A DNA stretch of 34,050 nt from a virus (lineage: Duplodnaviria; Heunggongvirae; Uroviricota; Caudoviricetes), in the IMG/VR virus record IMGVR_UViG_3300047159_000064; one strand, written 5' to 3'. Below the pieces are notes generated by a model, which worked only from the letters and a program-made list of their open reading frames with translations, had not been told where the DNA came from and did not search any database. How positions within the stretch are numbered: the first letter of the stretch is position 1; the number at the start of each line of letters is the position of its first letter. Shown in pieces: positions 5,746 to 27,469 of this stretch. The translations under genes and the position numbers were made by a program.

Positions 5746-6474
5746 TTAATTATAAAGTTCAGTTATTTTAGATACTTTATAATTTTCTAAAACATACCTT
5801 ATACACGGTTTAATATCTGTTCCATATAAAACTTGTATACTTTTTCCAGATTGTCTAACTGCAGCATATTTTAATTGGTCTTTTTCAACTTCTCGGCCCT
5901 TTATTTCAATATACTGCCCGTCAACAATATAATCTGGAGTGTAATAATGAGTTTTACCCTTATACTTGTATTTGAATCTATCAGTACAACGGCTTATTTG
6001 CTTATTATTATCTTTACAATAGATATAATAAGCTAATTCCCAAGTAGACATATGATATATTCCATCATATCAGCCACCCTTACTATGTAAATTTCTAGGA
6101 TTATCAGAATGATTATAATTTAATAGCTTTTCTGAAATAAGAGCTTTCGTTTCTTCTGATAAATGTTTTCCAGTCATTGGTCCAGGATGAGTCTCATAAA
6201 ATTTTTTCTTTCCTTCTGAGATCTTTTTAATTACATCGCTAGTTTCTGCAGTTAGTCCTTTTGCTCAATTTTTGCCCCTGCCTGTATATCTATTGTTATG
6301 ATTATTTGGACCACAATGAGCTAAATGATATTTTAAACGTGTCCAATAAAATAACTTATGACATTTTGGACACTCTACCTTAACATTAGTTGGATTTAAC
6401 TCACACGCTTGAATATGCCTTGCCAATTTCTGCTTTGTTTCAAATTCTTTGCTACAATACTTACACTTATACAT
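5746..6474 (-). CDS. Zinc-finger/NUMOD3-like/PD-(D/E)XK homing-type endonuclease, 242 aa with two in-frame TGA
   Basis: Track ORFs 6265..6474 and 5746..6051 are one frame joined by TGA at 6267-6265 and 6072-6070; CKYC..HIQAC, CPKC..HLAHC, GKHLSEETKALIS, YTPDYIVDGQYIEIKG. Confidence 0.85.
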
Positions 6475-6521
6475 AATTAAATGCTCCTTATATATTATAC
6501 ATTTAATTTAGCATATTTTTT

Positions 6522-6554
6522 AAGTCCCGTGCCTTACCGCTTGGCTACTCGGAA
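6522..6554 (-). pseudogene. 5' half of an interrupted Gln-like tRNA
   Basis: TTCCGAG-TA-GCC-AAGCGGTAA-GGC-A-CGGGA-CTT, then AT-rich sequence. Confidence 0.7.
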
Positions 6555-6567
6555 ATAATTCTATCGG

Positions 6568-6900
6568 CTAGAAGCTCATCTTCCTGAGCTCTTCCGCCAA
6601 ACGATTCTTTCTGGCTTTAAGCGTGTCTATCTCATGGTCTATGCCGCGTATCTTGCTTTTTATCTTATTCATATCTATAATCAGCTTCGCACGCTCCAGA
6701 TCGCCGTCGCTGGATATTCGCTCGAACTCTGGAGCGTCGCTGACGTACAGCCACGGATTGCTGCTGCGGCCGCCCATGTCTATGTAATCGTCGCCGAAGT
6801 AATCTACGCAGCGCTTCGGCTTCTTGAACACTTTGATTATCTCTGAGCCGGAAGCGACCATATCGCCTTTGCTCAGGCTCATAAGCTCTTCTATCGTCAT
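6568..6900 (-). CDS. Hypothetical protein with C-terminal coiled coil
   Basis: 110-aa ORF, AAAGGAG RBS, TAG stop. Confidence 0.8.
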   Translation of the reverse strand: MTIEELMSLSKGDMVASGSEIIKVFKKPKRCVDYFGDDYIDMGGRSSNPWLYVSDAPEFERISSDGDLERAKLIIDMNKIKSKIRGIDHEIDTLKARKNRLAEELRKMSF

Positions 6901-6922
6901 AGGTCGCTCCTTTCTATTGCGC

Positions 6923-6998
6923 TGGTGCCGATTGGTGGATTCGAACCACCGACCTATCGCTTACGAGGCGATTGCACTTCCAGCTGTGCTAAATCGGC
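6923..6998 (-). tRNA. tRNA-Thr(CGT)
   Basis: Cloverleaf, CT-CGT-AA, CCA. Confidence 0.93.
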
Positions 6999-7000
6999 AG

Positions 7001-7075
7001 TGGTGGGCGCTGAGGGGTTCGAACCCACAACCCCCTCGGTGTAAACGAGGTGCTCTCCCGTTGAGCTAAGCGCCC
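7001..7075 (-). tRNA. tRNA-Val(TAC)
   Basis: Cloverleaf, TT-TAC-AC, CCA. Confidence 0.92.
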
Positions 7076-7194
7076 ATGCTTTTTATTATACGCCGCGGAT
7101 CGCGCTATTCCCGATAAAAATAAACGGGCCGCTTTCCAGCAGAGCCCGTTTATCGCGCTTTCGCGCATCGACATGCTTTTATCTTAAGTATGCT

Positions 7195-7326
7195 TTATAG
7201 ATGGGTCTCCGCGCCTTTCGAGCCTAACTCGACGGCGGCTGTTTGCGTACGATCAAATATCGCGGTTTGTCCTACAAATTCGCGGTCTTTAAGATCATAT
7301 ATTCGCAAAGCTTCAGAAATCATCAT
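7195..7326 (-). CDS. Small hypothetical protein (43 aa, MMISEALRIYDLKDREF...)
   Basis: Open frame immediately after a GCTAAATT motif; TAA stop followed by a terminator-like hairpin. Confidence 0.5.
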   Translation of the reverse strand: MMISEALRIYDLKDREFVGQTAIFDRTQTAAVELGSKGAETHL

Positions 7327-7387
7327 ATTTAATTTAGCCTATTTATTTTTATTTTTTAATTATTTCGACATATTTCGTCAAAACGAC

Positions 7388-7485
7388 TGGCAGGAGCGGA
7401 AGGTGTCAAGCCCTCATAACTAAGGATGGACCCCTAGCTCACGATTTTGAAGATCGTTTCCATCGTCGGATGGTAAGACGCTCCT
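7388..7485 (-). tRNA. Opal-reading tRNA(TCA) with Trp-type acceptor and long variable arm
   Basis: AGGAGCG/CGCTCCT, G73-CCA; ACGAT-CTTCAAA-ATCGT; D stem CCATC/GATGG with 4-nt loop; 8-bp variable stem; T arm GAGGG-CTTGACA-CCTTC. Confidence 0.82.
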
Positions 7486-7498
7486 ATTAGGCGAACGA

Positions 7499-7693
7499 TT
7501 ATCTGCCTGATTGCTTTTCAGCTTCGGCGACAGACGCTTCGTATCATCCTATAAGCTCTTCGCAGGATTCGGCTATGAGACGCGCTTCCGTCAATTTGAT
7601 AACGGAAGGCGCGTCTAAGTCATATTCTTCTTTGAGCCTATCAGCGCGTTTTAGCAGAAGCGCGACCGAAGCGGCCTCGCTCTGCTTAGGCAT
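7499..7693 (-). CDS. Small helical protein (64 aa) with in-frame TGA at codon 50
   Basis: ATG overlaps the end of the upstream gene; frame continues ...EELIG[TGA]YEASVAEAEKQSGR-TAA. Confidence 0.5.
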
Positions 7694-9650
7694 TAAGCTT
7701 GCCCCCGTTTACCAAGGCGACAAGCTTCTCGAGCTCCCAGGTTCTCACGACGGTCTGGCCTTCCTTAGGAGTATACGTGTTGCTGAACACGATGGTGGCG
7801 TCTTCCGGCTTGACCACGCTGTATTCGCTGCGCAAATCGGCGACCAAGCCGCAGTTGAACTCGAGCGACGAATCGCTCATGTAGCGCATTACGACTTTGA
7901 GATCCTCAGGGCAGAGCACAAGGTTGTTGGCGTCGCGGATCATGTTGAGCATGACCACTTCGTTCTTCTCCAAGTCGAACGCGAACGCGATGCAGGCACG
8001 AGAATCGCCCTTGACCTGGAACTGGAACTCGATGTTCTTCGGATCCCAGGCTCTCGTCGCCAGGTTCTCTTTGTTCTGATAGCCGCAGAAGATCTCGCCT
8101 TCGTTGAGATTGGAAGCGAAGCCGTTAAAGGCCTGAATGACGTACTTATAGCCCTTGGCCTTGAGCTCAGAGAGCTTGAGATCGTAGTATTCGGATCCTG
8201 CGGCGTCGCGGCAGTCGCCTGAGAACATGATGGATAAGCCAAACGGCTTAGCCGCATAGTTATAGAAGCCGATCGTCGACACGTCGCCGTTGTCCTTGAC
8301 CAAAATCAAGGAAGAGTCGATGTCGAAAGCGTCTTTCCAATAAACGAAAGTGCGGATGTTGTCGTATCGGCACGGCAAGCGCGATCCGGTAGGAACGACG
8401 TCGATTCCTTTGCCGCCGGTCGAGGTGTTAGAAGGAATGCCGATCTTGTAGAATTCGTCAGACACGTAAGATTTGCCGATAGACGGCATAGCCGCGAACG
8501 CGTCCTTGACCTTCTGGCCGACCAAGTCGTGCAAAAGCTTCTTCGTCGAATCGTTGAGCTTGGATTTTCTCCAGGTGCTCTCGTAATCCGTTTCGATGTG
8601 GCGCTTCATGCGGTTGTTCTTAAAGAACGCGAACGTGCGAGGTCCTTCTTTGTCTTCAGACAAAGTAGAGACCATCTGGTAGAGAACGATAGGATTCTTC
8701 GCCGGAATCAAGTCTAAGATCTTGCCCGCTTCGATAGGATTGGCTCTCGAAAGCAAGTATTTGATGTTTCTCTGAAGCAACGAGCCATTGTGCGCGTAAA
8801 CCTGAGCGGCGCCGTAAACGTCTCCAGCGCGCATCTTGGCTTCGGCGAGCTTGTACGGAGAATTCGCGTTCGTCGCGACATTGGCCTTGACGCCGCAAAG
8901 GCTGCCGATCTTATTGTAGTATTTAGCCTGCTTTTTGGTGAGCGGGCAATCGTGGACCAAAGGATAGCATTCCTTGATGAGCTCTAGGTCGGTGCCTGAA
9001 TTCGCTTTCTTGTAATCGAATTTCTTGCAGTCGCCAAACATCGAAACAGAGAGCTTGACTAAGTCTTTCTTATCTAAGAAGCGCGCGAATTTGACGTTCT
9101 TTCTCAAAAGAGCAAAAACGTTTTCGCGGCACTTGATTTCGGTGCCTTTGTAATAGCCGTTTTCGAACAGCCATTCGAATTCGGCCTGCTCCTGGAGCCC
9201 AAACGGACGGGTATAGGCGCAATAAGAATCTGCCACGCCGCAAAGAATCTTCGTGGCTTCGTCCATCGTGACGATCTGGAACTCGCGGAGCTTCAATTCG
9301 TCGCCGACTTTGTATTCCGGCAGATCCTTGGCGTAGAGCTTGATGCGGTCGTAATAGCCGACGGTCTCCACCGCCAAATAAGAGACGAGCTGCTCGACGA
9401 GCAATTCGTGTCTAGTGTAGTATTTGGTGTCCTGCGGATTGGCGTAGAAGCTCGCCGGAACGTTGAGCTTGAACTCTCCGGAGATGATTTTGACCATCCC
9501 TTCGCTCAAAAGCTCAGGATGATTAACGACGACCCCGAAGTTGGCCAAAAGATACGCGTTGTAATAAGCGCTCTTTGCCTTATCGATTTGCGCGCCGTCC
9601 TCCAATAAGTAGTGGCGAGCAAACAGCAACTTGTCCATCGTAGATTCCAT
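7686..9650 (-). CDS. Large alpha-helical + C-terminal TerD-like domain protein (candidate RNA-binding partner of the Y-like RNAs)
   Basis: C-terminal RTFVYW...DIDSSL...FSGD...GSEYYDL...FCGY pattern resembles TerD-like folds; N-terminal ~400 aa look helical; no vWA DxSxS motif. Confidence 0.7.
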   Translation of the reverse strand: MESTMDKLLFARHYLLEDGAQIDKAKSAYYNAYLLANFGVVVNHPELLSEGMVKIISGEFKLNVPASFYANPQDTKYYTRHELLVEQLVSYLAVETVGYYDRIKLYAKDLPEYKVGDELKLREFQIVTMDEATKILCGVADSYCAYTRPFGLQEQAEFEWLFENGYYKGTEIKCRENVFALLRKNVKFARFLDKKDLVKLSVSMFGDCKKFDYKKANSGTDLELIKECYPLVHDCPLTKKQAKYYNKIGSLCGVKANVATNANSPYKLAEAKMRAGDVYGAAQVYAHNGSLLQRNIKYLLSRANPIEAGKILDLIPAKNPIVLYQMVSTLSEDKEGPRTFAFFKNNRMKRHIETDYESTWRKSKLNDSTKKLLHDLVGQKVKDAFAAMPSIGKSYVSDEFYKIGIPSNTSTGGKGIDVVPTGSRLPCRYDNIRTFVYWKDAFDIDSSLILVKDNGDVSTIGFYNYAAKPFGLSIMFSGDCRDAAGSEYYDLKLSELKAKGYKYVIQAFNGFASNLNEGEIFCGYQNKENLATRAWDPKNIEFQFQVKGDSRACIAFAFDLEKNEVVMLNMIRDANNLVLCPEDLKVVMRYMSDSSLEFNCGLVADLRSEYSVVKPEDATIVFSNTYTPKEGQTVVRTWELEKLVALVNGGKLNA

Positions 9651-9702
9651 AATCGGTTTTTCCTTCCGCAGTTATCCTGCTTTATCTTTTTATTTATATA
9701 AA

Positions 9703-10110
9703 GGGCGTCTCAGGATTCTTGAACCAGCTAAATTAATTCCAATTTTTTGAAATAAGCATGGTTTCGACCCGAGACGCCCAATACATAATTATATTGGCCT
9801 GGCTATTGATTTTTGGGAAAAAAATTATTTGAAATAAGCCCAGGCTCTCGGGAATTTATTTAACGTGCTTTTCCTTGGCACGTTATATTATACGCCGATA
9901 TCTTAAATTTTTAGCGACAAAAAAATCCTCGGCTTTTCGTCGAGGACTATTTTCATAATAGGCTTGGCTATTGTAGCCAGCCGTTTTACGGGTTGGCTAT
10001 TTCATTTTCCATATGAATTTTTGAAATAAGCACAAGCTCTAAATCTTACAGAATAATGGCCTAACTAATTGGTATTGCATTCAATGTGTAATGAAATAAG
10101 TATAGGCTCT
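9703..10110 (-). repeat. Four tandem bulged-stem RNA motifs (GCTTATTTCA...TAGC)
   Basis: Copies at 10059-10110, 9961-10040, 9797-9848 and 9703-9779 with covarying outer stems; same motif at 2979-3090. Confidence 0.85.
9919..9946 (-). terminator. Rho-independent terminator after motif copies 1-2
   Basis: TCCTCG-ACGAAAAGC-CGAGGA followed by a T7 tract. Confidence 0.75.
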
Positions 10111-10115
10111 AAATT

Positions 10116-10123
10116 ATTATACG
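10116..10123 (-). promoter_or_regulatory. CGTATAAT -10 element (representative of 10 copies)
   Basis: Also at 766, 5469, 7085, 9887, 10718, 13372, 14315, 16563 and 23658, each upstream of a gene or RNA. Confidence 0.8.
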
Positions 10124-10143
10124 ACAAACTTAAGGATTTTAAT

Positions 10144-10458
10144 TTACTCGACGCAGGCTACGTCTCCATGCGCAGGACGCGATTCCCCATAGGCTGCCTC
10201 GACTGCCGCCGCCATGCAAGAAGCCTCTTCTATCATGCAGCTGTATACGCGGCTGTATTTTTCGCTCAGCTTCGCTCTTGTGGCAGAAAGCTTGCTTATC
10301 ATGTCGTCTATCGATCCGTCTTTGCACGGATTGAAGCTGGATTCCTTCAATTTGGACAGCGTTTTTATGTACTTGTCTACTTCGCTCTCCTCTGTTTGGA
10401 TGTCTTCTACCTCTCTGCACAGCGAATCATAGCTATAATCAGCCATAAAATAAAACAA
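10144..10458 (-). CDS. Hypothetical coiled-coil protein
   Basis: ORF track; start may be ATG 10446; TAA stop. Confidence 0.7.
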   Translation of the reverse strand: MFYFMADYSYDSLCREVEDIQTEESEVDKYIKTLSKLKESSFNPCKDGSIDDMISKLSATRAKLSEKYSRVYSCMIEEASCMAAAVEAAYGESRPAHGDVACVE

Positions 10459-10504
10459 GCTCCTTTGCTCTAATCTGTTCGTCCGACCTACAAATTTAGC
10501 GAAT

Positions 10505-10702
10505 CTACATCGGCTTTTGGCCGTCGTTTTCCATCTCGACGGACAAATCCACGTCCGCGCAGGCAGACACGAGGCTGACGTCTATCTTCATCCTGCATTT
10601 AGATAGGCATAGGCTGCAGTTTGACACTATATAGGGCATTCCGCCCAAACTAATCGTTCTGCTGCCTTTAAGGGCGTCCATTACGGCTTCCGTTCCAAAC
10701 AT
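10505..10702 (-). CDS. Small hypothetical protein
   Basis: 65 aa, AAAGGA RBS, CGTATAAT promoter upstream. Confidence 0.65.
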   Translation of the reverse strand: MFGTEAVMDALKGSRTISLGGMPYIVSNCSLCLSKCRMKIDVSLVSACADVDLSVEMENDGQKPM

Positions 10703-10791
10703 ACCATATTCCTTTTTATTATACGATAGGGCAATAAATAAGGCGCGACGCCTAAACGCCGTGCCTAATAGCCTGCGCTTTTTAGCCGGCT

Positions 10792-11136
10792 CTATGCGCT
10801 ATGGGCGCCAGAATCGGCTTTCCTGTCTTCATCGTCGTCGTCTTCGACGTCGACTGAGTCTTTGGCCAAGGTGACGCACATTCTACCGTCGTCTACGCAG
10901 AACCCGCTTATCTTGCGGCTTAGAAGCTCCGGGCTAAGCACCGTGTCCAGCGGATCCAAGTCATCGGCGAAATCGGAAATGCCGAAATCGAACCAGTGAT
11001 TGAGATCGTCGGCGTTATAGTAGATTCTCACGATAGAAGAGCTTTGCTTGACGGTGCCGTTCTTGTCAAGCTGAACCTCTTTGAACATGAAATACGACAG
11101 AAATACGTCTAAGCTAACAGTCGCTGTCTTATCCAT
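10792..11136 (-). CDS. Hypothetical protein, acidic tail
   Basis: 114 aa; TAATG overlap with the upstream gene. Confidence 0.8.
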   Translation of the reverse strand: MDKTATVSLDVFLSYFMFKEVQLDKNGTVKQSSSIVRIYYNADDLNHWFDFGISDFADDLDPLDTVLSPELLSRKISGFCVDDGRMCVTLAKDSVDVEDDDDEDRKADSGAHSA

Positions 11137-13349
11137 TATCGTTCGCCTCCCAGGAACCGGTCTCTCAGACTGATGATATCAGTCTTATAAGGATATTCCT
11201 TGGTCTCCTTGTTTCTGTCTTTATCATACAGCTTTCTGCAGAATCCGTAAAACGCGTTCTCCAATGAGTTCTGCAATGCGCCAGTTTTGGCGTAATAGCC
11301 GCAGCGAAGCGTCTGGTCGGCGACGCTGCGAAGTTTCTTCCATTGGTTGTAATAGCCTGTTTTGCACTTGGTCATGAAGCCATCGGAATCGACGAAAACG
11401 AAGCCTTCGATGTATCTGCCTTCGTATTTGTAGTCTTCGCTCTGCATGCCGGAGTAGACGCTCAAGAACTGATCCCAGTCCTTTAGTTCGAACGCTTTCT
11501 CTTTGACGCTGCAGCCGATCTTGTTATCGGCGAAATCCTTAAGATCGCTGTACGGAACTGTGCCGTATTCAAGCTTGTTGTAGATGCCGTCAAGCAATAC
11601 GATGTTGTTTTTGGCGTACTTGATGATATGAGGGTCATGCTCGACGTCCTCGCACTCGAACACCAGCGAGAGATCTGAGCCGCTTTCGTGATAATAGCGA
11701 AGGTACTTAAGCAAATTAGCATAATAAGGCTCAAGCTGCGCTCTGATGTATCCGGCGAAATCTCCGCCCGTCGTCGACTTAGACGCGATAAACAGGCTGT
11801 CGTTTCTGTAATCATAGGACACGATGGCCAAGAATCCGTTCTCCTTGACGTACGCGGTCACCGGGAATTTAAGCTTCGTGCGCAAAGCGCAGAGCTTAGT
11901 CTCAGCTGTTTCGTCGATGCGGAAAAACTTCTCGTAAGAGCGCGCCATGATTTTCTTATTCGTGACATCGATGAACAAGCCTCTGGCGAGAATGGTCTGC
12001 TTGTTCCAATTGCCCTGCCAGAAAGCGTCGCGGGTGAAATTGAAAGACGAAACGTCGGCGTCGAGGTGCTTTTCCTGGACGCAGTCGTTGTTGCGCAAAT
12101 ACGCGATGGCGTCTTCAACCGTGTCGACCTTGCGCTGCGTCGTGTCTTCGCTCTCTGTCACCGGCTGGCAGTCGTCAAGCTCGACGACGGTCCATTTCAG
12201 GTCCGCGGTCAATTCTACCAAACGGAGCTTGCCGCCGAATTCGACGCCGCCTTCGAGATTGAACACCCTGTCGGCGATCTGCGTCGGATCGTCGAAAACG
12301 TTGCGATGCGCATGAACCTGGAACTGATTGTCTTTGGAATCGCGCATCCAGACTTCGGCGATGGTCTGGCTGTCTTTGACGTCTCCGACGCCGTTGATGA
12401 AATCTTTCGTAGGAAGATACACCAAATTGTCTTTCATCGACGGAATGCCGCCGTGGCAAGCCAAAATCTCCAACCCGTTGTAAGTGAAATGCGACATCTG
12501 GCGGCATTTGCGATAGAGCATTCTCGCGTCTTTCTCGCTGATCCCGCCGGCGACGAGCTGCGGCTTCGTCTTCTGCTCGAATTCCAAAGAGGCGGCTTTC
12601 GCCGAATTGCCGAAGTCGCGGATGCTGACGTCGTGATTGCCTTCGAGCAGGCAGACGTTAGGCTTATTCATGATAGAAATGAGCCAGCGAACGACCTCGG
12701 CGTTCTGGTTGCCGCGATCAACGTAATCGCCTAAAAAGATATACTCGGTGTCGTCGGCCAAGCCGTTTTTGAAATACTGCATGGCTGTGTCGTAGCAGCC
12801 GCGGAGGCTTCCGACGAAAACGATTTTCTTGTACTGCGACAGATCGAAGCTTTTCTCAAGAACGGCGTCAAGCTCGTCAGGCTTAATAACCTTGATGCTG
12901 CCTGGTACCTTCTGAGTGGCGAATCTAGCGTAGATGTTCTCGATGCTGTCATCTGGCACCCATTTGTATTCCGGGCGCATTTTGTTGCGCTTAAGGCATT
13001 CGTCGAGCGGCACGCCGGTGAAATCTACGCAGAAAACATTGTACCGATACTGTTCGGCCAAATCTTTGTATTGCTGGATGTCTTTGGTCTTAGACGCGGT
13101 GGCGTCGATGACCGTGAACTCGCCTTTGCTCATGCGGTAATCGAGCATCTCGAAGAGAAGCTTCCATACCTCTGTCTCAACCTCGCGGTTGCGGCCGATC
13201 GAAAACGTGCCGTCGGCTTTCATGTCGATGGAGCTGCAAAGCACGCGAAGATCGTCTGGGCACAGCGTGTACTGCTCGAGATGATGCTCTTTGACCCAGG
13301 TCGATTTTCCTGCGCCAGGCGCCCCGCGAAGAATAAGCAATGTTCTCAT
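11136..13349 (-). CDS. Pnkp-like polynucleotide kinase / metallophosphoesterase / Rnl1-type RNA ligase fusion
   Basis: N-terminal GAPGAGKST P-loop and DAT motif; GDYVDRG and GNHD calcineurin-like motifs; C-terminal KENGF (KxxG) and EGFV..KCK ligase motifs. Confidence 0.92.
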   Translation of the reverse strand: MRTLLILRGAPGAGKSTWVKEHHLEQYTLCPDDLRVLCSSIDMKADGTFSIGRNREVETEVWKLLFEMLDYRMSKGEFTVIDATASKTKDIQQYKDLAEQYRYNVFCVDFTGVPLDECLKRNKMRPEYKWVPDDSIENIYARFATQKVPGSIKVIKPDELDAVLEKSFDLSQYKKIVFVGSLRGCYDTAMQYFKNGLADDTEYIFLGDYVDRGNQNAEVVRWLISIMNKPNVCLLEGNHDVSIRDFGNSAKAASLEFEQKTKPQLVAGGISEKDARMLYRKCRQMSHFTYNGLEILACHGGIPSMKDNLVYLPTKDFINGVGDVKDSQTIAEVWMRDSKDNQFQVHAHRNVFDDPTQIADRVFNLEGGVEFGGKLRLVELTADLKWTVVELDDCQPVTESEDTTQRKVDTVEDAIAYLRNNDCVQEKHLDADVSSFNFTRDAFWQGNWNKQTILARGLFIDVTNKKIMARSYEKFFRIDETAETKLCALRTKLKFPVTAYVKENGFLAIVSYDYRNDSLFIASKSTTGGDFAGYIRAQLEPYYANLLKYLRYYHESGSDLSLVFECEDVEHDPHIIKYAKNNIVLLDGIYNKLEYGTVPYSDLKDFADNKIGCSVKEKAFELKDWDQFLSVYSGMQSEDYKYEGRYIEGFVFVDSDGFMTKCKTGYYNQWKKLRSVADQTLRCGYYAKTGALQNSLENAFYGFCRKLYDKDRNKETKEYPYKTDIISLRDRFLGGER

Positions 13350-13463
13350 TTTAAAGATCTCCCAATAGCTTATTATACGGCTAACCGCGCTGGCGATTGA
13401 CGATTTTAAGCAAAATAAAAGCCGCGAAACGATATCGCGGCCTTCGTCGTACTACGGCTTCGC

Positions 13464-14471: not shown

Positions 14472-15701
14472 CTACTCTGTTCCGTAGTATTCGCTATAGA
14501 TCTCTTCCCAGTGATCCATGCCGTCTATGTAGTAAAGGCCTCCAGCTGCCGCCGCTTCAGCTTTCGTCAGCTTAGTGTATCGTATCTCGTGCATGACCTC
14601 TGAGTAATCGCCAGTCGGCTTATCCGCTCCGCCGAAATTATCCTGCGTCAGAAGATTCGGATTGGCTGAAGACGACCAGCTTAAGTGCGTCGTTGTGTAA
14701 GACGAATCTCTCGCATCTATGCCTTCATGGCTTCTGCCCATTACTGAAACAGCTACGACCGACAGCTTAGAAAAATCAGGCAGCTGATCTTCAGACAGCG
14801 GCTTCGGCCATTTGTAGCCGTTCATCAAATCTGCCGTATTCACGTTCGTCAAATCGAAGAACCCTCTTGGCTCATACGCCGATTCGGCATATATATTGCC
14901 GTCGTCGTCATCTAAGAACACTGTCGCTCCGCCTATGCGCTTCCAAAAATCATTGTACGGTCTCTCTGCGTCCTTATCGTCTTGCTTCTTCATCTTAAGC
15001 GCGATGTTAAGCAGATTATTGAATGCCTTAATAAGCAGTGCGTCATCCATAAAAGTTTGGCCAGTTATCTGCGCACGTTGGCTGTACTGGCTGCAAGCCG
15101 CATCTGCGTCGAAAGAGGCATGAATGGTTACATACACATCTTTAAGCTCATCTCTTCAGTCTCATGACATAACGTTATCGAGCGTTAGCTCCGGCTCTAA
15201 TCCTATTAACTTTTTGCACTCATCCAACAGCTTTTGATCGACCATTGACTTCAGCTGCGGGGCAATCTTTGCCACTCTTTCGTTCACCGCAGCCAGCGTC
15301 GTCTGAAGCTTAGCTGCGAAATCAATTCTGCTCTTAGCTTTTTCTTTTTCGCTAAAAGCATAGATATAATCATAATTATCCTTGAAAACGTGAACCCACA
15401 AAGCTATCGCAGCCTTGACTGCTGGAATATTTTTATCCTGCTTTATTATGTCGCCGTATACGCCGCGGCGCATAAGAGCGCCGCTATCATTGAAAATAGA
15501 CAAAAGCCCTAGACCTGACAACGCAGAATCATAAGCCATATGAAAAGCGTCTAAGTCTATTTTTTTTCTGTCCTTCAGCGTATCCGTATATAGCTTCAAA
15601 GCGGCGGCTGTGTCTGCAGCTGAAATGTTTATGTAGTCAGATTTATAGCTCTCGTCTAAGCGATTGAGCTCATCGAAAGCCTCCAATATATGTCTAGCCA
15701 T
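14472..15701 (-). CDS. Hypothetical 409-aa protein with two in-frame TGA (joins track ORFs 15162..15701 and 14472..15137)
   Basis: Same frame: ...VMS[TGA]D[TGA]RDELKDVYV...; AAGGAG RBS at the 15701 start. Confidence 0.75.
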
Positions 15702-18376: not shown

Positions 18377-19672
18377 CTAAAAGTCAGCCGTTTCTTTGTC
18401 AGGCCTGAAATCCCTGAACACCGGGAACCTCAGGCTGCTGCCGCCGTCGGCGTTAGTCGTCTCCTCGAAATACTGCACCTCTATTATCGTGCCTAGGTAT
18501 CTGCCTTTGTTGGCCCAGATATCGGATCTCTGCTCGTCAGAGAACCCTGATCCGACCTTCACGGTCTGCCCGTCTTTGTATCTGACCAAAGCCGCGCCAA
18601 GCGTCCCAGCCAGCCTTCCTGAGCCTTCTTCGAATCCGGTCAGCTCCATGTCGTACGATTTCATCAGCTTCACCTTAAGCAGATCCGACGTGCGCTTGAA
18701 TCTGTACGGCGCCGAGCATACGTTTATCATGACGCCTTCTTCGCCGTGCGCCACGTTGTAGTTAAGCCATTTGATTATCTGAGCCGCGTCGTCGCCTCTG
18801 TAAAGCACGGGAAGCAGATCGAAGAACACGTGCTTCGACGAGCCGAAGAACGAATCAAGGCTCTTTCTGCGATCGTCGTACGGCGTGTCGCAGCTCTGAG
18901 ACACGAACTCGTCGGCAGTCAGCATGTCGAACACGAGCATCTTGACGCCGTGCTTGACGCCGTCTTTGCGCGTTATCATCATCGTCCGCTTGTACTGATC
19001 CTTGCTAGTCAGCGCGCCTTTGTCCAGCAGCGTTATCTCGCCGTCTAGGCAGATGTCGTCTTCAGGCGACGCCTTAAGCTCTTCTTCCAGATCGACGAGC
19101 CCTTCGTAGCTTTGGCCTGCCCTTGTGTAGAAGCTGACTTCGCCTTTGCGCTTGAGCGCTATGATTCGCCCGCCGTCTATCTTCGTAGTAAGCGCGAACG
19201 TCTTGCCTTCGACGCTCTCAGGCCGCTCGAAGTATTTGTTCGCCAGCTGGACCGAGAACGTAGGCACCAATCCCGGCAGCGCCTTGTTTATGCCGTCTGC
19301 GCCTATGCCGAGCGGAAGGTTCTTCGATATAAGCTTCCTGAAGAAGCATACCAACTCTTGATCTCCGCCCAGGACGGAGGACTCGAATTCGCGCAGCGAC
19401 GCCACGATGGCGTCAGATCCGCCGTTGTTGGCTTTGAGGAAGTCCAGCGCATCGAGCGTCGACTTCAGATGCGCAGCCGGTACAGCCGCGGTATCCTTCG
19501 CGGCTTTCTTGTCCGATATGCCCGTTACGACGTAAGGGTTAAAAAGAAAAGACAGGCATCTCACGACGTCGCTGTCATTCTTGTATTTCGCCAAAACGGC
19601 CTGTTTGCTGATCTGCGAATTGCTCGCCGTCATCTCGTCTGCGAACGCCTTGAATCTCTTGAGTGTTTCCAT
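18377..19672 (-). CDS. ATP-dependent DNA ligase
   Basis: KIDGGR (motif I), LDGEI, VFDML, EGVMI, LLKVK, C-terminal OB fold ending SLRFPVF. Confidence 0.95.
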   Translation of the reverse strand: METLKRFKAFADEMTASNSQISKQAVLAKYKNDSDVVRCLSFLFNPYVVTGISDKKAAKDTAAVPAAHLKSTLDALDFLKANNGGSDAIVASLREFESSVLGGDQELVCFFRKLISKNLPLGIGADGINKALPGLVPTFSVQLANKYFERPESVEGKTFALTTKIDGGRIIALKRKGEVSFYTRAGQSYEGLVDLEEELKASPEDDICLDGEITLLDKGALTSKDQYKRTMMITRKDGVKHGVKMLVFDMLTADEFVSQSCDTPYDDRRKSLDSFFGSSKHVFFDLLPVLYRGDDAAQIIKWLNYNVAHGEEGVMINVCSAPYRFKRTSDLLKVKLMKSYDMELTGFEEGSGRLAGTLGAALVRYKDGQTVKVGSGFSDEQRSDIWANKGRYLGTIIEVQYFEETTNADGGSSLRFPVFRDFRPDKETADF

Positions 19673-20432: not shown

Positions 20433-20447
20433 GGCCTGCCCGCTCTC

Positions 20448-21299
20448 CTAATCCAGCGAATCCCAGTTGATGTCGTCTTCGTCTATGTCAGGCTCGATGT
20501 CGCTTGGCAGCGATTCTTCGAGCTCTTCTATTATCTTGTTGTCTAGCTCTTCCGTCTCGACGCCTTCAGGCAGCTTGGTGCCGTCCGCGTAGACGCAGTC
20601 GTCTATCTCGACGTCCTCGACGGATACGTCATCGATATCTGACGCGTCGAACTCCCGCTCTGAGCCGTCGTCGTACAGGACGCTGCCTTCTCCGTAAGGA
20701 ACGTACGTTTTTTCGCCGTGCGAAATCCAGGCGCTGACGTCGCCTGTTACCGTGTAGGTTCCTGACACCATGTATTTCACGCCGTCTACTTCCACCTCTT
20801 CGTCTTTGAAGCTGCCTGGGCAGCTGAATGAAGCGTAGTCTTCTTTTAGCTGCTTCTTTCCTTTTGCGCCAGGCTTAGCCGATTCGTCTTTCTGCTCGTC
20901 TTTGTCTGCTTCTTTGTCGCCGGCTATCTGGTCTGCGCCTTCGCGCTCGCCTTTCTCTACGGCGGCCTTCTGCGCAGCGTCGAGCTTGTCCAGCACCGCG
21001 GTCAGCTGGCCGATGTGCTTGTTCTCTTCCTTGATAATATCGGAATAGACGCCTTTGACCGCGTCGACGAGATCCTTGAGATCCGCCGAGCCGAACGCGT
21101 CGAGGCCTTTGACGATCCTGTTGTAGTCGTTTATCGTGTTATGCTCGCCTACGATGGATTCGCGCAGCTCCTTCTCAAGGTAGTCGCGCAGCCTTCCGAG
21201 ATTGCTGTCGTCGACAGGCTTCTCGTCATTGCCGTTTATCTTGTCCAACTCGTCGAACGCGCCCAATACCGTGCGGACGTCTTTGTCATCAAATTCCAT
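20448..21299 (-). CDS. Protein with N-terminal ferritin-like ExxH region and acidic C-terminus
   Basis: ESIVGEHNTINDY...DIIKEENKHIGQL. Confidence 0.6.
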   Translation of the reverse strand: MEFDDKDVRTVLGAFDELDKINGNDEKPVDDSNLGRLRDYLEKELRESIVGEHNTINDYNRIVKGLDAFGSADLKDLVDAVKGVYSDIIKEENKHIGQLTAVLDKLDAAQKAAVEKGEREGADQIAGDKEADKDEQKDESAKPGAKGKKQLKEDYASFSCPGSFKDEEVEVDGVKYMVSGTYTVTGDVSAWISHGEKTYVPYGEGSVLYDDGSEREFDASDIDDVSVEDVEIDDCVYADGTKLPEGVETEELDNKIIEELEESLPSDIEPDIDEDDINWDSLD

Positions 21300-21320
21300 T
21301 TCAGCTTACCTCCAGCTTCC

Positions 21321-22052
21321 TTATTTACCCCAGCCTGACGCGTATATGGCTTTGCGCTGCGCGTCTGCCTTTCGTTTAGTGACGAACTCGCCGTGCTCTC
21401 CCGCTTTTCCGCGGTTGACCCACTTGCCGTCTTTCGCCTTGACCGTGCTCTCCAGCAGGCCTTCATTCGTCTGAGCCGGAGCCTCTTTCAGCCTGAGCTC
21501 GTTGTTCTTGGCCTCGAGATCCAGCAGCTTCTTCTTGACGTCAGGCAGCCTCTTGTCCATGTCGGCGGATATGTCGTCCGCGTGGAAGTCGAAGAAGAAC
21601 CCCCAGAACAGGTCGGTCGCTGTGTTGCACAGCGCTATGTTGTCTTTCTCTGTCTGCTTGCTCGCGTCGTCGAAAGGCATGTCGTCTACCAGCTTAGAGC
21701 ACTCTTCCTTTATCGACTTCAGCTCGGCTTTGTCGGCCTCAGGCAGCTCCTGCCCTACTGCTTCGTCCAGCGGATACGACCCGTCTGACGCCTGGGCTTC
21801 GCGCTCTATCTCCGCCTTGCGGCTGTCTTTCCAGCCCTGGCTTACGCCTTCGTCGAAAGAAAGCTGATACAGGCATACGCCGAGCAGCTGCTTCAGATAG
21901 GCGCGCTTGGTATCGTCTCTCTCCGTTTTCACGCAGTCTAATATCTTCTCGGCGTCGTCCGTCGTATAGCCGAGCAGCAGGTCTTCGTTCAGCTTAGACC
22001 CGCCTTCTTGCAGACCGGACAGCGCGTCTCAGACGCTGAAGAAATCATCCAT
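21321..22052 (-). CDS. Hypothetical 243-aa protein with in-frame TGA at codon 8
   Basis: GGAG RBS then ATG 22052: MDDFFSV[TGA]DALSGLQE... continuous into track ORF 21321..21932. Confidence 0.7.
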
Positions 22053-22172
22053 GGTTAGAAGCTCCAAATCCGCGGCGCCATAATCGCGTCGCTCAATCAA
22101 ATAATTTAGCAAAATAAACCTGCGAAGGCAAAACAAAAAGCCGGCCTTTCGACCGGCTAACATCAACGATAG

Positions 22173-22682
22173 TTATACTCTTAGTACGTCGAGCGCCTTC
22201 TGGATGTCCCTTTCCTGGAAGCCGCCAGGCCTGACGTAATAATAGAACGTCTTGACGAGGCGCTTAATGAGATCCTCTTTGGCGTAGTCGAATTCCTCGT
22301 CGTCCAATATGACGAAGGAATCCTTGCTCTCGTCGTACTTATGCTCCGACAGCCAGAGCTTGATAGCGGCGCCTCTGCGGTTAGGCCCGCCTAGCTTGTC
22401 TTCCTCTGCCAGCGTGTTGCCGGAGATGACTACGCCGTACCGCCTGAACTTCGAAAGCATGTACTTCCTGAGCGGAGAGCCCGAAGGCAGCTCTTTCCAC
22501 GAGGACACCAAAACGACTTCGGCGCCGGAAAGATCTATCAGCTCGGCCAAAGCCTTCATGTGCGACGATCCGATCCCGATGTACCCGGAGCAGCGAGGGC
22601 CGTTCAGCCGCTTGCCCGTCTCTGAGTAGGAATCGCTCTCGGCGTTGAGCACCCCGTCTATGTCCAAGAACACGTATCGCAC
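22173..22682 (-). CDS. HAD-superfamily phosphatase (HAD_SAK-like)
   Basis: FLDIDGVLN motif I, VVLVSSW motif II, FVILDDE motif IV; GTG start 22682. Confidence 0.85.
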   Translation of the reverse strand: MRYVFLDIDGVLNAESDSYSETGKRLNGPRCSGYIGIGSSHMKALAELIDLSGAEVVLVSSWKELPSGSPLRKYMLSKFRRYGVVISGNTLAEEDKLGGPNRRGAAIKLWLSEHKYDESKDSFVILDDEEFDYAKEDLIKRLVKTFYYYVRPGGFQERDIQKALDVLRV

Positions 22683-22684
22683 GG

Positions 22685-23614
22685 TTAGACTCCGAGGACT
22701 TCGCGGACCTTGGCGGCGCAGAGCTGCTTGAGCACCTTGAAGTCGATCTTCGGGCTGTGGAATTTCTTGAGGATGATCTCCCAGTTGTCTCTGAAGAACT
22801 CGTCGAAGGCGCGGCCGATGAGCTCTGAGGTCATCTTCATGTCCCAGCCGTCCGCAGAATGGAGCTCGATGACCTTGGCCTTCTCTTTGGCGATGTGCTC
22901 GACGGTCATGAGCTTGACGATCTCGTATTCCACAGACTGGCCCGCCTGATCGGCCAAAGCCTTCTCGTGGCGCGATTCGTGCTTGTGGGCGAGATAGTCT
23001 TCGGTCAGCATCTTGGCCCAGGTGCGGCGGCCGTACTGGTTCTTGTATTCGTAGTTCTTGAGGACGATGCCTTCGCCGTAGTCGCCGGAGCCGATGAGGA
23101 ATTCCTTGGTGCGCGGAAGCAAGGCCTTGATGTCCTCTTCCGTCGGATCGCGCAGCTTGGCGAGAAGCGGGATGTAAAAGACGTGCGGGCATTCCGACTT
23201 GAGGATCTCGCTGTACTCGTCGTAAGACAGATATCGGCCGGTCTCGTCGTCGAGCACGTCGAACACGTAGAGGTGGCGCCAGGCGTCGTCTCTGTATGTC
23301 TTGAGGTTGGTAGGCACGAGCCATTCGCCGTAGACCGTCCACGAAGGATGCTTGGTGAGCAAGGCCAGGAGCTCCGCTCGGACGTCGGCGTTCTCAGGCG
23401 AGTTCATCGCCTTCACGAGGCCTTGGTTGTCTCCGAGCTTAGAATCGTCCAGAACGCGCTTTCTGGACCCGTAGGCGAGCTTTCCGCCTTGGTCGAGCCA
23501 AACGCACGTGTTGGTCCCGTCTATCTTGTAGAACGCGTATACGTCGCCTTTGAGGATGCCTTCTACTTCGGCGGTCCCCAGCTTCTCGACGTGTTGGTAC
23601 GGTTTGTATTCCAT
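22685..23614 (-). CDS. RNA ligase (Rnl2-like nucleotidyltransferase)
   Basis: KIDGTN motif I, VYGEW, YVFDV, GEGIVLKN, WAKM; start ATG 23614 after AGGAGG. Confidence 0.8.
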   Translation of the reverse strand: MEYKPYQHVEKLGTAEVEGILKGDVYAFYKIDGTNTCVWLDQGGKLAYGSRKRVLDDSKLGDNQGLVKAMNSPENADVRAELLALLTKHPSWTVYGEWLVPTNLKTYRDDAWRHLYVFDVLDDETGRYLSYDEYSEILKSECPHVFYIPLLAKLRDPTEEDIKALLPRTKEFLIGSGDYGEGIVLKNYEYKNQYGRRTWAKMLTEDYLAHKHESRHEKALADQAGQSVEYEIVKLMTVEHIAKEKAKVIELHSADGWDMKMTSELIGRAFDEFFRDNWEIILKKFHSPKIDFKVLKQLCAAKVREVLGV

Positions 23615-23727
23615 GGCTATCAGCCCTCCTGGCGGCTTGCGGCCGCTCAATCGTCTTATTATACGATGAGAAAAGGCCGGAAGGGCGGTTTTTTATTCCG
23701 CTCTCCGGCCCAGCTTTCCGGCTAAGG

Positions 23728-24024
23728 CTACCCTCGCTTCGCCTTAGGCTGCAAAGCCTGACGCTCCATCTGAGCCTCGGCCTTCGCGGCGAACTGCGCC
23801 GCCTTCTGAACGGACGTCCAAGGATCCTCGTAGTCTATGGTCACGTCGTCTCCCGACCATTTGCGCTCCAGCTTCTCGACCGGCATGCCCAGCAAGCCCG
23901 CCTTCTCGGCCTCGGAGTAGGCGTACTCCGCCGGCCCGTACACCACGGCTATCCCGGTCTTCGCCCTGACGAGGACGTAGTCGCCTTCCCCCTCGCCCAT
24001 GAGCAGCTTTCCCAAAGTTACCAT
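23728..24024 (-). CDS. Hypothetical protein (98 aa, MVTLGKLL...)
   Basis: C-terminal part of track ORF 23728..24990; start overlaps the upstream stop. Confidence 0.7.
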   Translation of the reverse strand: MVTLGKLLMGEGEGDYVLVRAKTGIAVVYGPAEYAYSEAEKAGLLGMPVEKLERKWSGDDVTIDYEDPWTSVQKAAQFAAKAEAQMERQALQPKAKRG

Positions 24025-25130
24025 CCCTGATTCTCCTTCACCGCGTAATCTGCGTAGGACAGATAGACTTTGATAGGCTGCCTGACGCATCCTTCTAGGC
24101 TGTCCTTCTGAGCCTCCGTCAGCTCGCTTTCCATCAGCGCTCCTCTGTCCATGCAGCCGCCGGTCTTCTTCTTGGTGTTGCGGACGCATTCGTCGTAGGC
24201 CTCTTTGGCCTCTTTCGCGGTCATCGAATCGTCCAGCCTGACGAACGACGCGAGCTCGTAGTCCCAGCGCGTCAGCCAGTTGGCCTCGTCGGATTTCAGA
24301 TCGATGCTCTTGTACTCGCTCGGGAATTCCTTTACCCTGCGCCTGGCCTTCTCGGCCGCGGCGAGATCGCGCCCGCCTGATGCGACCCTGGCAGGCTTTG
24401 TCTCCTTGAGCTCGAGGCAGTAGCTGTATTTGTTCTCGCCGCTCAATTCCGCGGCATCGACGAAGCCGTGCATCCTGCGTGGCTCGCAGGCCACCACCGT
24501 GTCGCCGCTCCACTGCCTTTCGTACAGCTTGCAGTAGACCCAGAACTCCCCGACGTAAAGCTCTTTCGAGGTCAGCGTCTCGACGATGTCGCCCTCTTGG
24601 TAGTCTACGGTCTTCTTCCTCGTCCTGGATTCCTCGTCCTTCTTGGCCTGGGCGAACTCCGGCATGCTCTCGCAGAACGCGCCGACCTGATTGCCCCTGA
24701 CCCTGCCGAGCCAGAGCTCTTCGGCGCACTTGCCCTCGTCGAACCTGCACGCCTTGAGCAGATGGAGCAGGAGCTCCGAGTTGATGCCGACGACGAACTT
24801 CGCCCCGTCCGGCGCCGTGAGCAGGCAGTCCCAGAAAGACAGCTTGCCGCCTTGGGTAGACCATGAGGCGGACTCGAGCAGCTCGAGCCTGAAATGGCCG
24901 TTGTCGTATTCGTGATCGATCGCCTGGACCTTGACCGACTTGGCCTCCCGCTCCTTCCAGTCGTCGATTGAGTTGTCGTAGCGCGTCCACGATCCCCAGG
25001 AATGGGCGGACTCCAGCATCTTCTTGTTGCCGAGATCGACAACGTATCCCTGGTTAGGCTCGCCTCCGTCGTTCACCGGCCTTTCGACGACGATGACCCT
25101 GTCCGCGATCTTTATGCCCTGATAGCCCAT
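24018..25130 (-). CDS. Hypothetical protein
   Basis: 370 aa, translationally coupled. Confidence 0.85.
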   Translation of the reverse strand: MGYQGIKIADRVIVVERPVNDGGEPNQGYVVDLGNKKMLESAHSWGSWTRYDNSIDDWKEREAKSVKVQAIDHEYDNGHFRLELLESASWSTQGGKLSFWDCLLTAPDGAKFVVGINSELLLHLLKACRFDEGKCAEELWLGRVRGNQVGAFCESMPEFAQAKKDEESRTRKKTVDYQEGDIVETLTSKELYVGEFWVYCKLYERQWSGDTVVACEPRRMHGFVDAAELSGENKYSYCLELKETKPARVASGGRDLAAAEKARRRVKEFPSEYKSIDLKSDEANWLTRWDYELASFVRLDDSMTAKEAKEAYDECVRNTKKKTGGCMDRGALMESELTEAQKDSLEGCVRQPIKVYLSYADYAVKENQGW

Positions 25131-25535
25131 TTACTCGTCCCTCCCGCCTTTGCCTTCGAATCTGTACACCTGATAGTCCTCGGACGATGAGATCTTCCAG
25201 CCTCCGTCGGTCTTGGAGCACCAGTACATCGCGTTGTATCTGTCCGTCGGCCAGGCCTTGCTTTTGCCTTTGCCCCAAGTCGGCGCGTAGGAATCGGTCT
25301 TGTCGACGGCGAATCTGGCCAGGAACGGATCGTCTTTGAACGGCCCATCCTCCCACTTCAGCGTCGGATACCACTTCTTGTAGAGCTTGGCGATCATCGC
25401 GTGATGCGCCTTGATCACCATTTCGACGTCTTCGTACTCGTCGACCGTCATGATGACTTCGTGGCTTCTGCCGACGAAGCTGCGGTACTCGATGACGTAG
25501 GCGTCTTTCTTCTCTTTCGCGATCCCTGCTTCCAT
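25131..25535 (-). CDS. Hypothetical protein
   Basis: 134 aa, AAGGAGG RBS. Confidence 0.85.
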   Translation of the reverse strand: MEAGIAKEKKDAYVIEYRSFVGRSHEVIMTVDEYEDVEMVIKAHHAMIAKLYKKWYPTLKWEDGPFKDDPFLARFAVDKTDSYAPTWGKGKSKAWPTDRYNAMYWCSKTDGGWKISSSEDYQVYRFEGKGGRDE

Positions 25536-25667
25536 GGCTCAATCCTCCTTGTCAGACTACTATATAATACGGCCGGGATCCGCGAAGAATCGCCGAAACG
25601 TTAAAAGCGGCAAGCCAGAGCCTGCCGCCAAATAAGCTTCGATCAGCGAAGGAACCAGCGAAGTCTT

Positions 25668-26438
25668 TTAGTCCTCCGGCTGGGCGATCAGCCTCTCGAT
25701 GTAATCCCTGCCTTCTTCGACGAACCGAGGGATCTCGAGGTCGATGACCCACTTGCCAGACGCGTCTCTTACGGCGCAGCATCCGCGCTTCTCGCACGTC
25801 GGCAGCTCGCCCCAGACGACGCCTTTGGATTCCAGCATCGACTTCTGCTCTCTGACGCTCTTGCCTTCAAGCTGCTTCTGGGAGAACAGCGCCTGGGCGT
25901 TTGACGAGACCGAGTTGCGCTCGGCGTCGATCTGCCGCCAAAGCACGCAGTTCGTGACTTCTTCCTTGGGGACGTTGAACGCCCTGGAATCGAAGTAAGC
26001 CCCTGAGGCCAGAGCCTTCTGATACGCCGGCTCGCACTCGAGATCGCCTTTGGCCATAGCCGCGGCGTGGAGCTCGGCGAAGACCCGGTTGAATTCCATC
26101 GCCGCCAGAGAGGCGGACACCGAGACGACCTTCTGGACGTCGTATCCGAACCAGGCCTCCGTGGTCAGCGTCGCGTAGTCCGTCAGCACGAGCGTGATCT
26201 CGTCCGACTGCGTGTATCCGAGCACGCACCCCTGGACGCTCTCGCAGAGGAAAAGCATCGTCTGCCGCATGGCTTCCGCCAGAAGCGGATCGCACGGCTT
26301 CTTGAACCCCCTCGCGTAAGTGTGGAAGTGGCAGCCGTCAAGCCTGATTATCACAGGCGTCCGCCTCGTCAGCTTCGGCTTGTTGGCCCCTTCGTAGCAC
26401 TCCTTCATCCTGTCGCCCAATTGATCCAGCATCGGCAT
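25668..26438 (-). CDS. thg1: tRNA(His) guanylyltransferase Thg1-like protein
   Basis: RMKECYE, IIRLDGCHFH, GYTQSDEITLV, FDSRAF, WRQIDAERNS hallmark motifs. Confidence 0.93.
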   Translation of the reverse strand: MPMLDQLGDRMKECYEGANKPKLTRRTPVIIRLDGCHFHTYARGFKKPCDPLLAEAMRQTMLFLCESVQGCVLGYTQSDEITLVLTDYATLTTEAWFGYDVQKVVSVSASLAAMEFNRVFAELHAAAMAKGDLECEPAYQKALASGAYFDSRAFNVPKEEVTNCVLWRQIDAERNSVSSNAQALFSQKQLEGKSVREQKSMLESKGVVWGELPTCEKRGCCAVRDASGKWVIDLEIPRFVEEGRDYIERLIAQPED

Positions 26439-26459
26439 AAGCCAACCCTCCTGTATTCC

Positions 26460-26780
26460 TTATTGCGCCTTCCAGACGTCGACCCCTGCGGGCCCGTCTT
26501 CGTAGTAGCCTATCACCGACGCTATGGTGTGATGGCCGTCGACGACTTGAATGGACACGTCGGTGACCCTGAAGGGATAATCCTTCCACTGCTCGATCTC
26601 CTTGTCTTCCATGGCCAGAAGCTTGGAGCACATCGAGTCGTATTCAGGCTGGCCGAAATAGATGTCGAGAGCCGCTTCCGAGATCAGCGTCTTGCCGTTG
26701 ACCCTCAGCTCGACGCAGTTCATCGCCTTCAGCCCTTCCCACAAGTCGAACAGCGTCATGTCAGACGTTCCTTTTTCCAT
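26460..26780 (-). CDS. Hypothetical protein
   Basis: 106 aa, TAA stop. Confidence 0.75.
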   Translation of the reverse strand: MEKGTSDMTLFDLWEGLKAMNCVELRVNGKTLISEAALDIYFGQPEYDSMCSKLLAMEDKEIEQWKDYPFRVTDVSIQVVDGHHTIASVIGYYEDGPAGVDVWKAQ

Positions 26781-26787
26781 AAGCCTA

Positions 26788-27114
26788 TCAGCCTTTCCGG
26801 CCGCTCTTCATCTCGGCCTCTTTGCGGATGAGGATAGAGGCGCTTCTGAGCCAAGGCTGATTCGATCTGATCATGGCCGAAACCATGTAGTCGAATTCGT
26901 CGTCCCCTCCCTTTATCCCCGATTGCAGCGCGGCGTCGACGAACCAGATCGCCTCTTCGGGCTTGCGCTCCGCTATGATCCTGTCGAAGAACGATCCGAA
27001 CCCGCCGCTCGACTTGAGCCTGCCTATCTCCGATCGGAACGCCTGGGCGTTTTTGAGCCTCCCCGCTTCGTCGAAGCAGGAGAACACCCTCGTCATCTCG
27101 CTGTCTTTTTTCAT
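26788..27114 (-). CDS. Hypothetical protein (ends TGA-TAG)
   Basis: 108 aa, AAGGAG RBS; TGA immediately followed by TAG at 26785-26787. Confidence 0.8.
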   Translation of the reverse strand: MKKDSEMTRVFSCFDEAGRLKNAQAFRSEIGRLKSSGGFGSFFDRIIAERKPEEAIWFVDAALQSGIKGGDDEFDYMVSAMIRSNQPWLRSASILIRKEAEMKSGRKG

Positions 27115-27223
27115 GGCGCAATCTCCTTTGCCTAGTCTATAATACGACCAAGTCGGCCGCGGAAGAAGAAAAAAGATCCGACCTTCGCCGAATCCAGATT
27201 CGCCGGATAGCGGAAGCCGGCCT

Positions 27224-27469
27224 TTACTGAATCCAGTTTCCCGATTCCTCTTCCCTGTCGGCCTTCGAGCACGCGGCCAAAGCGGCGAATATGCACGCCA
27301 TGAAAAGCAGCAGGATCGAGCACGCCAGCGCTATGGTCGGCAGGAACGCCTCGGCTCAAGTCATGTCTGACCCGAGGCATTTGGCGATCAGAAGGGAAGC
27401 CTGCGATCCGGCCCACAGGATCAGCAGGGCGATCGACGACGCGACAAGAGCCTTGCCTTTCTTAGTCAT
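27224..27469 (-). CDS. 81-aa two-helix membrane protein with in-frame TGA at codon 38 (missed by the ORF track)
   Basis: AAGGAG RBS; MTKKGKALVASSIALLILWAGSQASLLIAKCLGSDMT[TGA]AEAFLPTIALACSILLLFMACIFAALAACSKADREEESGNWIQ-TAA. Confidence 0.8.

Follow-up and report, generated by a model that had tools for sequence, protein, structure and literature searches.

The DNA analyzed here is a 34,050-nucleotide stretch of IMG/VR virus record IMGVR_UViG_3300047159_000064 (Caudoviricetes), hereafter called the window. It comes from a wastewater phage of about 200 kb with a G+C content of 51%, and its minus strand carries every credible gene. Seven in-frame TGA codons interrupt reading frames in this region: two in an endonuclease gene (P0001), two in a gene coding for 409 amino acids (P0002), and one each in a gene coding for 243 amino acids (P0003), in a predicted membrane-protein gene (P0004), and in a small gene at 7499. 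In this report, we provide comparative evidence that UGA is likely to be decoded as an amino acid, most probably tryptophan (Trp), at a few codons of this phage, and that it still terminates other genes.

All seven of the TGAs listed by a first-pass annotation (6265, 6070, 7544, 15162, 15156, 22029, and 27356) are present, on the minus strand. More than 10 independent assemblies contain the window sequence at 99.5-100% identity, and it occurs in runs from 14 studies that are labelled as wastewater or bioreactor sludge; the habitat is not the gut. No assembly from other samples (99.5-100% identical over the sites) differs at any of the seven TGAs, and DNA contigs of an independent run span 5746-6615 and 14912-15701 with zero differing letters. 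Such constancy across more than 10 independent assemblies excludes sequencing errors as the source of the TGAs.

The first-pass annotation also relied on the fact that the TGAs join protein-like frames. The frames do join, but joining in itself does not exceed what chance provides. In a control, read-through of TAA or TAG likewise fuses 3 of 35 genes to the gene that follows in the same frame, and we therefore rejected in-frame joining as evidence. Five sites rise above chance because of comparative evidence, as described for each gene in the following paragraphs.

When TGA is read as Trp, P0001 matches the endonuclease family phrog_15137 over residues 1-206, a match that spans both of its TGAs (6265-6267, codon 70, and 6070-6072, codon 135). 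Across 23 aligned homologues, Trp is invariant in the column of codon 70, and the column of codon 135 is mostly Trp. A 72% homologue in another phage has TGG at both codons. A 96%-identical variant of P0001, present in five samples, retains both TGAs, and the 27 base differences between the two versions are distributed as 7, 2, and 18 over codon positions 1, 2, and 3. Over the gene as a whole, the ratio of nonsynonymous to synonymous polymorphism (pN/pS) is 0.12; it is 0.05 between the TGAs and 0.16 past the second TGA (p = 5e-4 for each segment after a TGA). The Trp columns of the homologues, combined with the pN/pS values beyond the TGAs, show that P0001 is translated through both TGAs. Public gene calls split the gene into products of 69 and 101 amino acids.

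The start codon of P0003 is an ATG at 22052 with GGAG upstream, and a terminator-like hairpin lies just upstream of the ATG. The TGA of this gene (22029-22031) is codon 8. Over the 32 codons from the TGA to the first start codon usable under genetic code 11, the coding score is +0.59 in frame, compared with -0.59 and -0.93 in the other frames. An 88%-identical homologue of 245 amino acids has the same start. Its first residues, MDDFFSAWDAL, place W at codon 8, and its N terminus is conserved upstream of any code-11 start; this homologue was compared as a protein, and in its gene codon 8 could be either TGG or TGA. The public gene call for P0003 is shortened to 203 amino acids.

P0002 contains a pair of TGAs separated by one codon (15162-15164, codon 180, and 15156-15158, codon 182), and public gene calls split the gene into 179 and 221 amino acids. 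Its distant homologues, found with a full HMMER search (phmmer), are single proteins of 370-430 amino acids. Several of their alignments cross the TGA pair, for example at query positions 26-355, 29-276, and 21-235. The columns around the pair are too variable to identify the residue. Two other strains (L049 and L050), which are 83% identical in the N-terminal half of P0002, retain the sequence TGA-GAC-TGA. No relatives of P0002 of similar length were found in viral contigs, Joint Genome Institute (JGI) metagenomes, or a set of 5.8 billion proteins. Codon 342 (14676-14678) is TGG in the window and TGA in L049. Past this codon, L049 differs at three more places, and all three differences are synonymous.

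The proposal of the first-pass annotation that TGA encodes Trp is supported by homologue columns and selection at 6265, 6070, and 22029, and the TGG/TGA polymorphism at 14676 adds to this support. Alignment of the TGA columns with homologues, a check that the annotation had suggested, gives Trp at W70, at W135 (mostly), and at W8. Judged by these comparisons, the translated sites are five: 6265, 6070, 15162, 15156, and 22029.

The interrupted genes could instead be pseudogenes or split genes in which the TGAs are nonsense mutations of TGG. Such a change takes just one transition and often gives rise to nonsense codons, and P0001 is a homing endonuclease, which belongs to a gene class prone to decay. 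However, purifying selection persists past each TGA, and variants of P0001 and P0002 that have diverged by up to 17% contain no additional stop or frameshift. Moreover, a rough hand estimate based on composition gives a probability of about 0.003 that both of two nonsense mutations in P0001 would fall on Trp codons. We therefore consider gene decay a very improbable explanation.

Two other explanations do not fit. Selenocysteine insertion does not agree with the observation that the TGA columns are Trp, and the Rfam tRNA-Sec model gives no match. Programmed C-terminal read-through is not compatible with TGAs that sit inside conserved domains, with two each in P0001 and P0002. Only the TGA at 7544 has the layout expected of C-terminal read-through.

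The evidence is weaker for the remaining two sites. The TGA of P0004 is probably read as sense. The two halves of this gene share one frame, in which their coding scores are +0.27 and +0.34, and a competing 63-amino-acid open reading frame chosen there by public gene callers scores -0.10. A hydropathy profile of the fused product has two hydrophobic segments, followed by a charged tail. Homologues and strain variation were looked for, and none were found. The public calls for split or truncated genes also include one of 37 amino acids. In the small gene, for which no homologues were found, read-through of the TGA at 7544 adds just a 14-residue tail. The 14-codon extension has a coding score of +0.24, and its strain variants are divided between third (two) and second (two) codon positions, so the use of this TGA as a sense codon is undecided.

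TGA also serves as a stop codon, as the first-pass annotation had claimed. It ends six of the seven genes in a cluster at 29938-33165, compared with 1 of 34 genes elsewhere in the window (Fisher p = 1e-5). The stops listed earlier at 31226, 30288, 29938, 31532, and 32857 hold up, and we add one at 31753. With the exception of 31532, read-through extensions of these stops have negative scores (-0.18 to -0.49). At 31226, the stop overlaps the start codon of the next gene as ATGA, which we read directly, and read-through would proceed out of frame across a gene for a pentapeptide-repeat protein. Outside the cluster, nearly all genes end in TAA or TAG, as stated previously; the one TGA is that of gene 26788-27114, which is followed immediately by TAG (tandem at 26785..26790, minus strand), such that the read-through extension has zero codons. 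Across about 75 kb of the phage, TGA closes approximately 12 of 98 genes, whereas 38% of the stop triplets in the coding strand are TGA (p = 1e-8). At 31532-31534, within a variable module, TGA is directly followed by the in-frame ATG of the next gene (75 and 101 amino acids); this could be a further read-through gene, or two genes.

The variable module is a region (29861-31861) to which other strains do not align: two of them (L012 and L013) match the window up to 29861 and again from 31861. The genes that replace the module end in TAA or TAG, with no TGA stops, according to gene calls on L012. The module encodes a 313-amino-acid pentapeptide-repeat protein that resembles proteins of Proteobacteria phages, and the module is apparently imported. 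No exact match to this protein was found with the start chosen for it. The suggestion that recently acquired modules are still written in code 11 fits this arrangement, since most TGA stops lie within the module, which other strains lack.

These stops bear on the possibility that the host itself uses code 4 and has no release factor 2 (RF2), with the phage simply following the code of its host. The best matches found for the phage release factor described below, in a search limited to a small number of peptide patterns, are in Bacillota, including a metagenome-assembled genome labelled Tenericutes. However, TGA stops are clearly used, including in ATGA overlaps, and the G+C content of the phage, the small share of TGA among Trp codons (about 6%, that is, 7 TGA compared with 119 TGG in the window), and the redundancy of a phage-encoded release factor 1 (RF1) in such a host all speak against this scenario, which we regard as highly unlikely.

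We looked for a phage-encoded RF1, another check that had been suggested, and found one in the same phage about 10 kb to the left of the window. A 199,817-bp JGI contig (L042) is 100% identical to window positions 2133-9020 and extends leftward. In its flanking part (L042:7755-20612), 34 tRNAs and a predicted transfer-messenger RNA (tmRNA; tag ending ...SFARA) are followed by the RF1 gene (L042:17408-18484). The protein has 358 amino acids, including the PAT and GGQ motifs, and matches NF001859 at 436 bits (cut-off 400), above both curated NCBIfam cut-offs. ARAGORN found no anticodon UCA among the 34 flanking tRNAs.

A candidate non-canonical opal suppressor tRNA with anticodon UCA lies within the window, at 7388-7485. 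The minimum-energy fold of this region is a clean cloverleaf (z = -2.76). The predicted tRNA has a 7-bp acceptor stem (AGGAGCG/CGCUCCU), G73, an encoded CCA, a 5-bp anticodon stem, an 8-bp variable arm, a 4-nucleotide D loop, and the T loop CUUGACA. A custom scan built on these features gave one match in the window and none in 300 shuffles, and an RNA contig spans 7378-8417, over the candidate. The acceptor pairs A1-U72 and G5-C68, together with G73 and the anticodon loop CUUCAAA, follow what we take to be the tRNA-Trp pattern, as in the E. coli molecule.

Because its variable arm is class-II-like, the same candidate might insert a residue different from Trp, such as serine, at UGA. A long variable arm is a main recognition feature for bacterial seryl-tRNA synthetase (SerRS), and the 8-bp arm and 4-nucleotide D loop would be in keeping with such a role. 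Nevertheless, this possibility appears improbable, given that all sites with homologues align to Trp, one of them invariantly, that TGG and TGA alternate at codon 342, and that the acceptor stem and anticodon loop of the candidate resemble those of tRNA-Trp.

Two other tRNA candidates were considered as UGA decoders and rejected. A "tRNA-SeC(tca)" at 9702-9779, which ARAGORN reports when its threshold is relaxed, is spurious: its stem is poor, and Rfam gives no match. A class-I tRNA beside tRNA-Met (L042:6865-6940) has a 6-nucleotide anticodon loop, CUCAAC, in most strains. However, the loop is shortened to 4 nucleotides in L018 and to 2 nucleotides in L043 and L045, and the gene is disrupted in the window. 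The rest of the body is nearly identical across strains, with two single-base differences. At the corresponding location (812-2156), the window has a 1295-bp insertion (838-2132) that carries an HNH endonuclease, a tRNA-Arg(CCU), and a chimeric tRNA-Arg(UCU). This location looks like the target site of a homing endonuclease, with resistance deletions in other strains.

UGA might also be read without any dedicated suppressor. In this case, a near-cognate tRNA-Trp(CCA) of the host or phage would read UGA inefficiently, and the TGAs would act as expression attenuators. Attenuation would suit a homing endonuclease, and sparse use of TGA alongside surviving TGA stops fits a partial efficiency. Also, C9 and a U11-A24 pair occur in the tRNA-Trp(CCA) that the phage encodes at L042:10859-10932, and the changes A9C and G24A are reported to promote UGA reading by E. 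coli tRNA-Trp(CCA) (PMC13092985). However, C9 and A24 are common in bacterial tRNA-Trp genes (PMC13092985), and two TGAs per gene would lead to a very low yield. A specific cloverleaf with anticodon UCA is present in the window, and the depletion of TGA stops and the phage RF1 point to a deliberate change in termination. Unaided leaky reading is therefore, in our estimation, an unlikely account of the data, if a somewhat less unlikely one than decoding as serine.

Our preferred interpretation is that UGA is a sense codon, most likely for Trp, in a minority of genes, and a stop codon in others, notably those of the imported module. We consider it likely that UGA has both uses, but several observations weigh against this interpretation. 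The support is at the level of sequence. ARAGORN and the Rfam tRNA models miss the candidate at 7388-7485. Exact and gapped pattern scans for its homologues gave only chance matches, so covariation does not support its structure. Its long variable arm could make it a substrate of SerRS, and no tryptophanyl-tRNA synthetase (TrpRS) was seen in the approximately 75 kb examined. Behind several TGA stops, no backup stop is close by; therefore, UGA still terminates translation and cannot be fully reassigned. Coding density, whose comparison under codes 4 and 11 had been proposed as a check, is essentially equal (0.716 versus 0.719) and is uninformative here, and code 4 brings no improvement over code 11 in the summed coding score. 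Long genes of 737, 654, and 431 amino acids in the window and of 2318 amino acids in the flank contain no in-frame TGA. Given these TGA-free genes and the equal coding densities, recoding in this phage is sparse, and too sparse in the window for a gain in density under code 4 to be visible.

In the mechanism that we propose, UGA would be decoded by the phage-encoded, structurally unusual tRNA(UCA) with Trp-type acceptor features, which is presumably charged with Trp. The phage RF1 would keep termination at UAA and UAG independent of RF2, and the RF2 of the host may be outcompeted or inhibited. The stop and sense uses of UGA could be separated by time or by efficiency. A bolder hypothesis, which we advance only tentatively and hold to be doubtful, is that UGA is truly ambiguous within one phage: the tRNA would represent a new class of opal suppressor, with an acceptor and anticodon loop of the Trp type on a body with a long variable arm that standard tRNA finders overlook. 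It would let TGG drift to TGA codon by codon, a process that the polymorphism between strains appears to capture under way, while imported modules retain TGA stops. If such a hidden class exists, many recoded phages reported to have no suppressor tRNA may carry tRNAs of this kind.

These results extend TGA-to-Trp recoding to a wastewater phage found across many studies, and show an early or sparse stage of recoding that is polymorphic between strains. One practical consequence is that standard gene callers break up or shorten at least four of the window's genes. Also, a candidate suppressor tRNA that is invisible to routine tools bears on recoded phages that seemingly have none. The findings that most merit follow-up are the unusual tRNA and the TGG/TGA polymorphism. 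Further possible in-frame TGAs occur near the starts of genes in the flanks (L042:15258, L051:11770, and L081:438-868); in the last of these, gene calls of 35 and 98 amino acids share one frame.

The features of the window are listed in Table 1. A set of RNA-repair genes, consisting of the Pnkp-RNA ligase fusion, the DNA ligase, the second RNA ligase, and the Thg1-like enzyme, adjoins the tRNA array, and this arrangement suggests a defense against host anticodon nucleases. No structural genes were recognized in the window.

Table 1. Genes, RNAs, and regions of the window
Feature	Coordinates	Strand	Remarks
tRNA array	681..7075	minus	16 ARAGORN tRNAs in the window; array runs on leftward
P0001, Zn-finger/NUMOD3 endonuclease gene, 242 aa	5746..6474	minus	phrog_15137 match
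Candidate non-canonical opal suppressor tRNA	7388..7485	minus	Anticodon loop CUUCAAA (UCA)
Small gene, 49 aa	7499..7693	minus	64 aa if TGA 7544-7546 is read
Pnkp-RNA ligase fusion	11136-13349		
P0002, 409 aa	14472..15701	minus	Single-protein homologues bridge the TGA pair
ATP-dependent DNA ligase	18377-19672		
P0003, 243 aa	21321..22052	minus	88% homologue with Trp at the TGA column
RNA ligase	22685-23650		
Thg1-like enzyme (tRNA-His guanylyltransferase)	25668-26438		
P0004, 81-aa two-helix membrane protein	27224..27469	minus	TGA 27356-27358 is codon 38
Strain-variable module	29861..31861	minus	Other strains carry different genes there
TGA-ended gene cluster	29938..33165	minus	Stops 29938, 30288, 31226, 31532, 31753, 32857
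aa, amino acids.

Strains also differ at two other places in the window. At 24375 (genes 24018-25130 and 23728-24024), L013 has one extra G and a single gene of 467 amino acids, whereas the window and L012 have separate calls of 370 and 98 amino acids; this difference reflects either a polymorphic frameshift or an error of assembly within a run of G. At 28543, near the start of gene 28241-28567, the window has GAG, and L012 and L013 have TAG, so the start of this gene is probably shifted in these two strains. No relative at the DNA level was found among GenBank phages. An IMG/VR relative (G001) was too distant to be used for comparison (Pnkp 63% identical, 29% G+C), and has neither P0002 nor a suppressor tRNA.

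Several known systems resemble the one described here. In UGA reading of the Hirsh type, tRNA-Trp(CCA) carries G24A or A9C (PMC13092985), and the phage tRNA-Trp(CCA) likewise has C9 and A24. Unlike that system, however, a separate UCA tRNA candidate is present, and these two nucleotides are widespread among bacteria. Phages with genetic-code blocks detected by Mgcod (bioRxiv 10.1101/2022.06.29.495998) also use TGA as stop and as sense codon in different stretches of one genome; in the phage studied here, by contrast, the block rich in TGA stops includes a strain-variable, apparently imported module.

The closest comparison is with the phages in which TGA is recoded to Trp, especially those of the Jade clade, which have a module of RF1, suppressor tRNA, and TrpRS (Borges et al., bioRxiv 10.1101/2021.08.26.457843). 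The same authors expect that there are non-canonical suppressors that evade detection, and in their model, stop and sense uses of the recoded codon are separated in time (Borges et al., bioRxiv 10.1101/2021.08.26.457843). The phage studied here differs from the Jade clade in its habitat (wastewater or sludge, not gut), in its sparse use of TGA over 34 kb, in that no TrpRS was seen in the region covered, and in that its candidate tRNA is non-canonical and missed by standard detectors. Also, the TGAs of the window sit in an endonuclease gene and in genes of unknown function rather than in structural genes. In common with the code-4 phages, it has in-frame TGAs at Trp positions, some genes that still fit the standard code, and an RF1 gene of its own; the tRNA(UCA) is a candidate for a further similarity. 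Phages with TGA recoded to Trp have thus been described already, and this phage joins them as one with sparse use.

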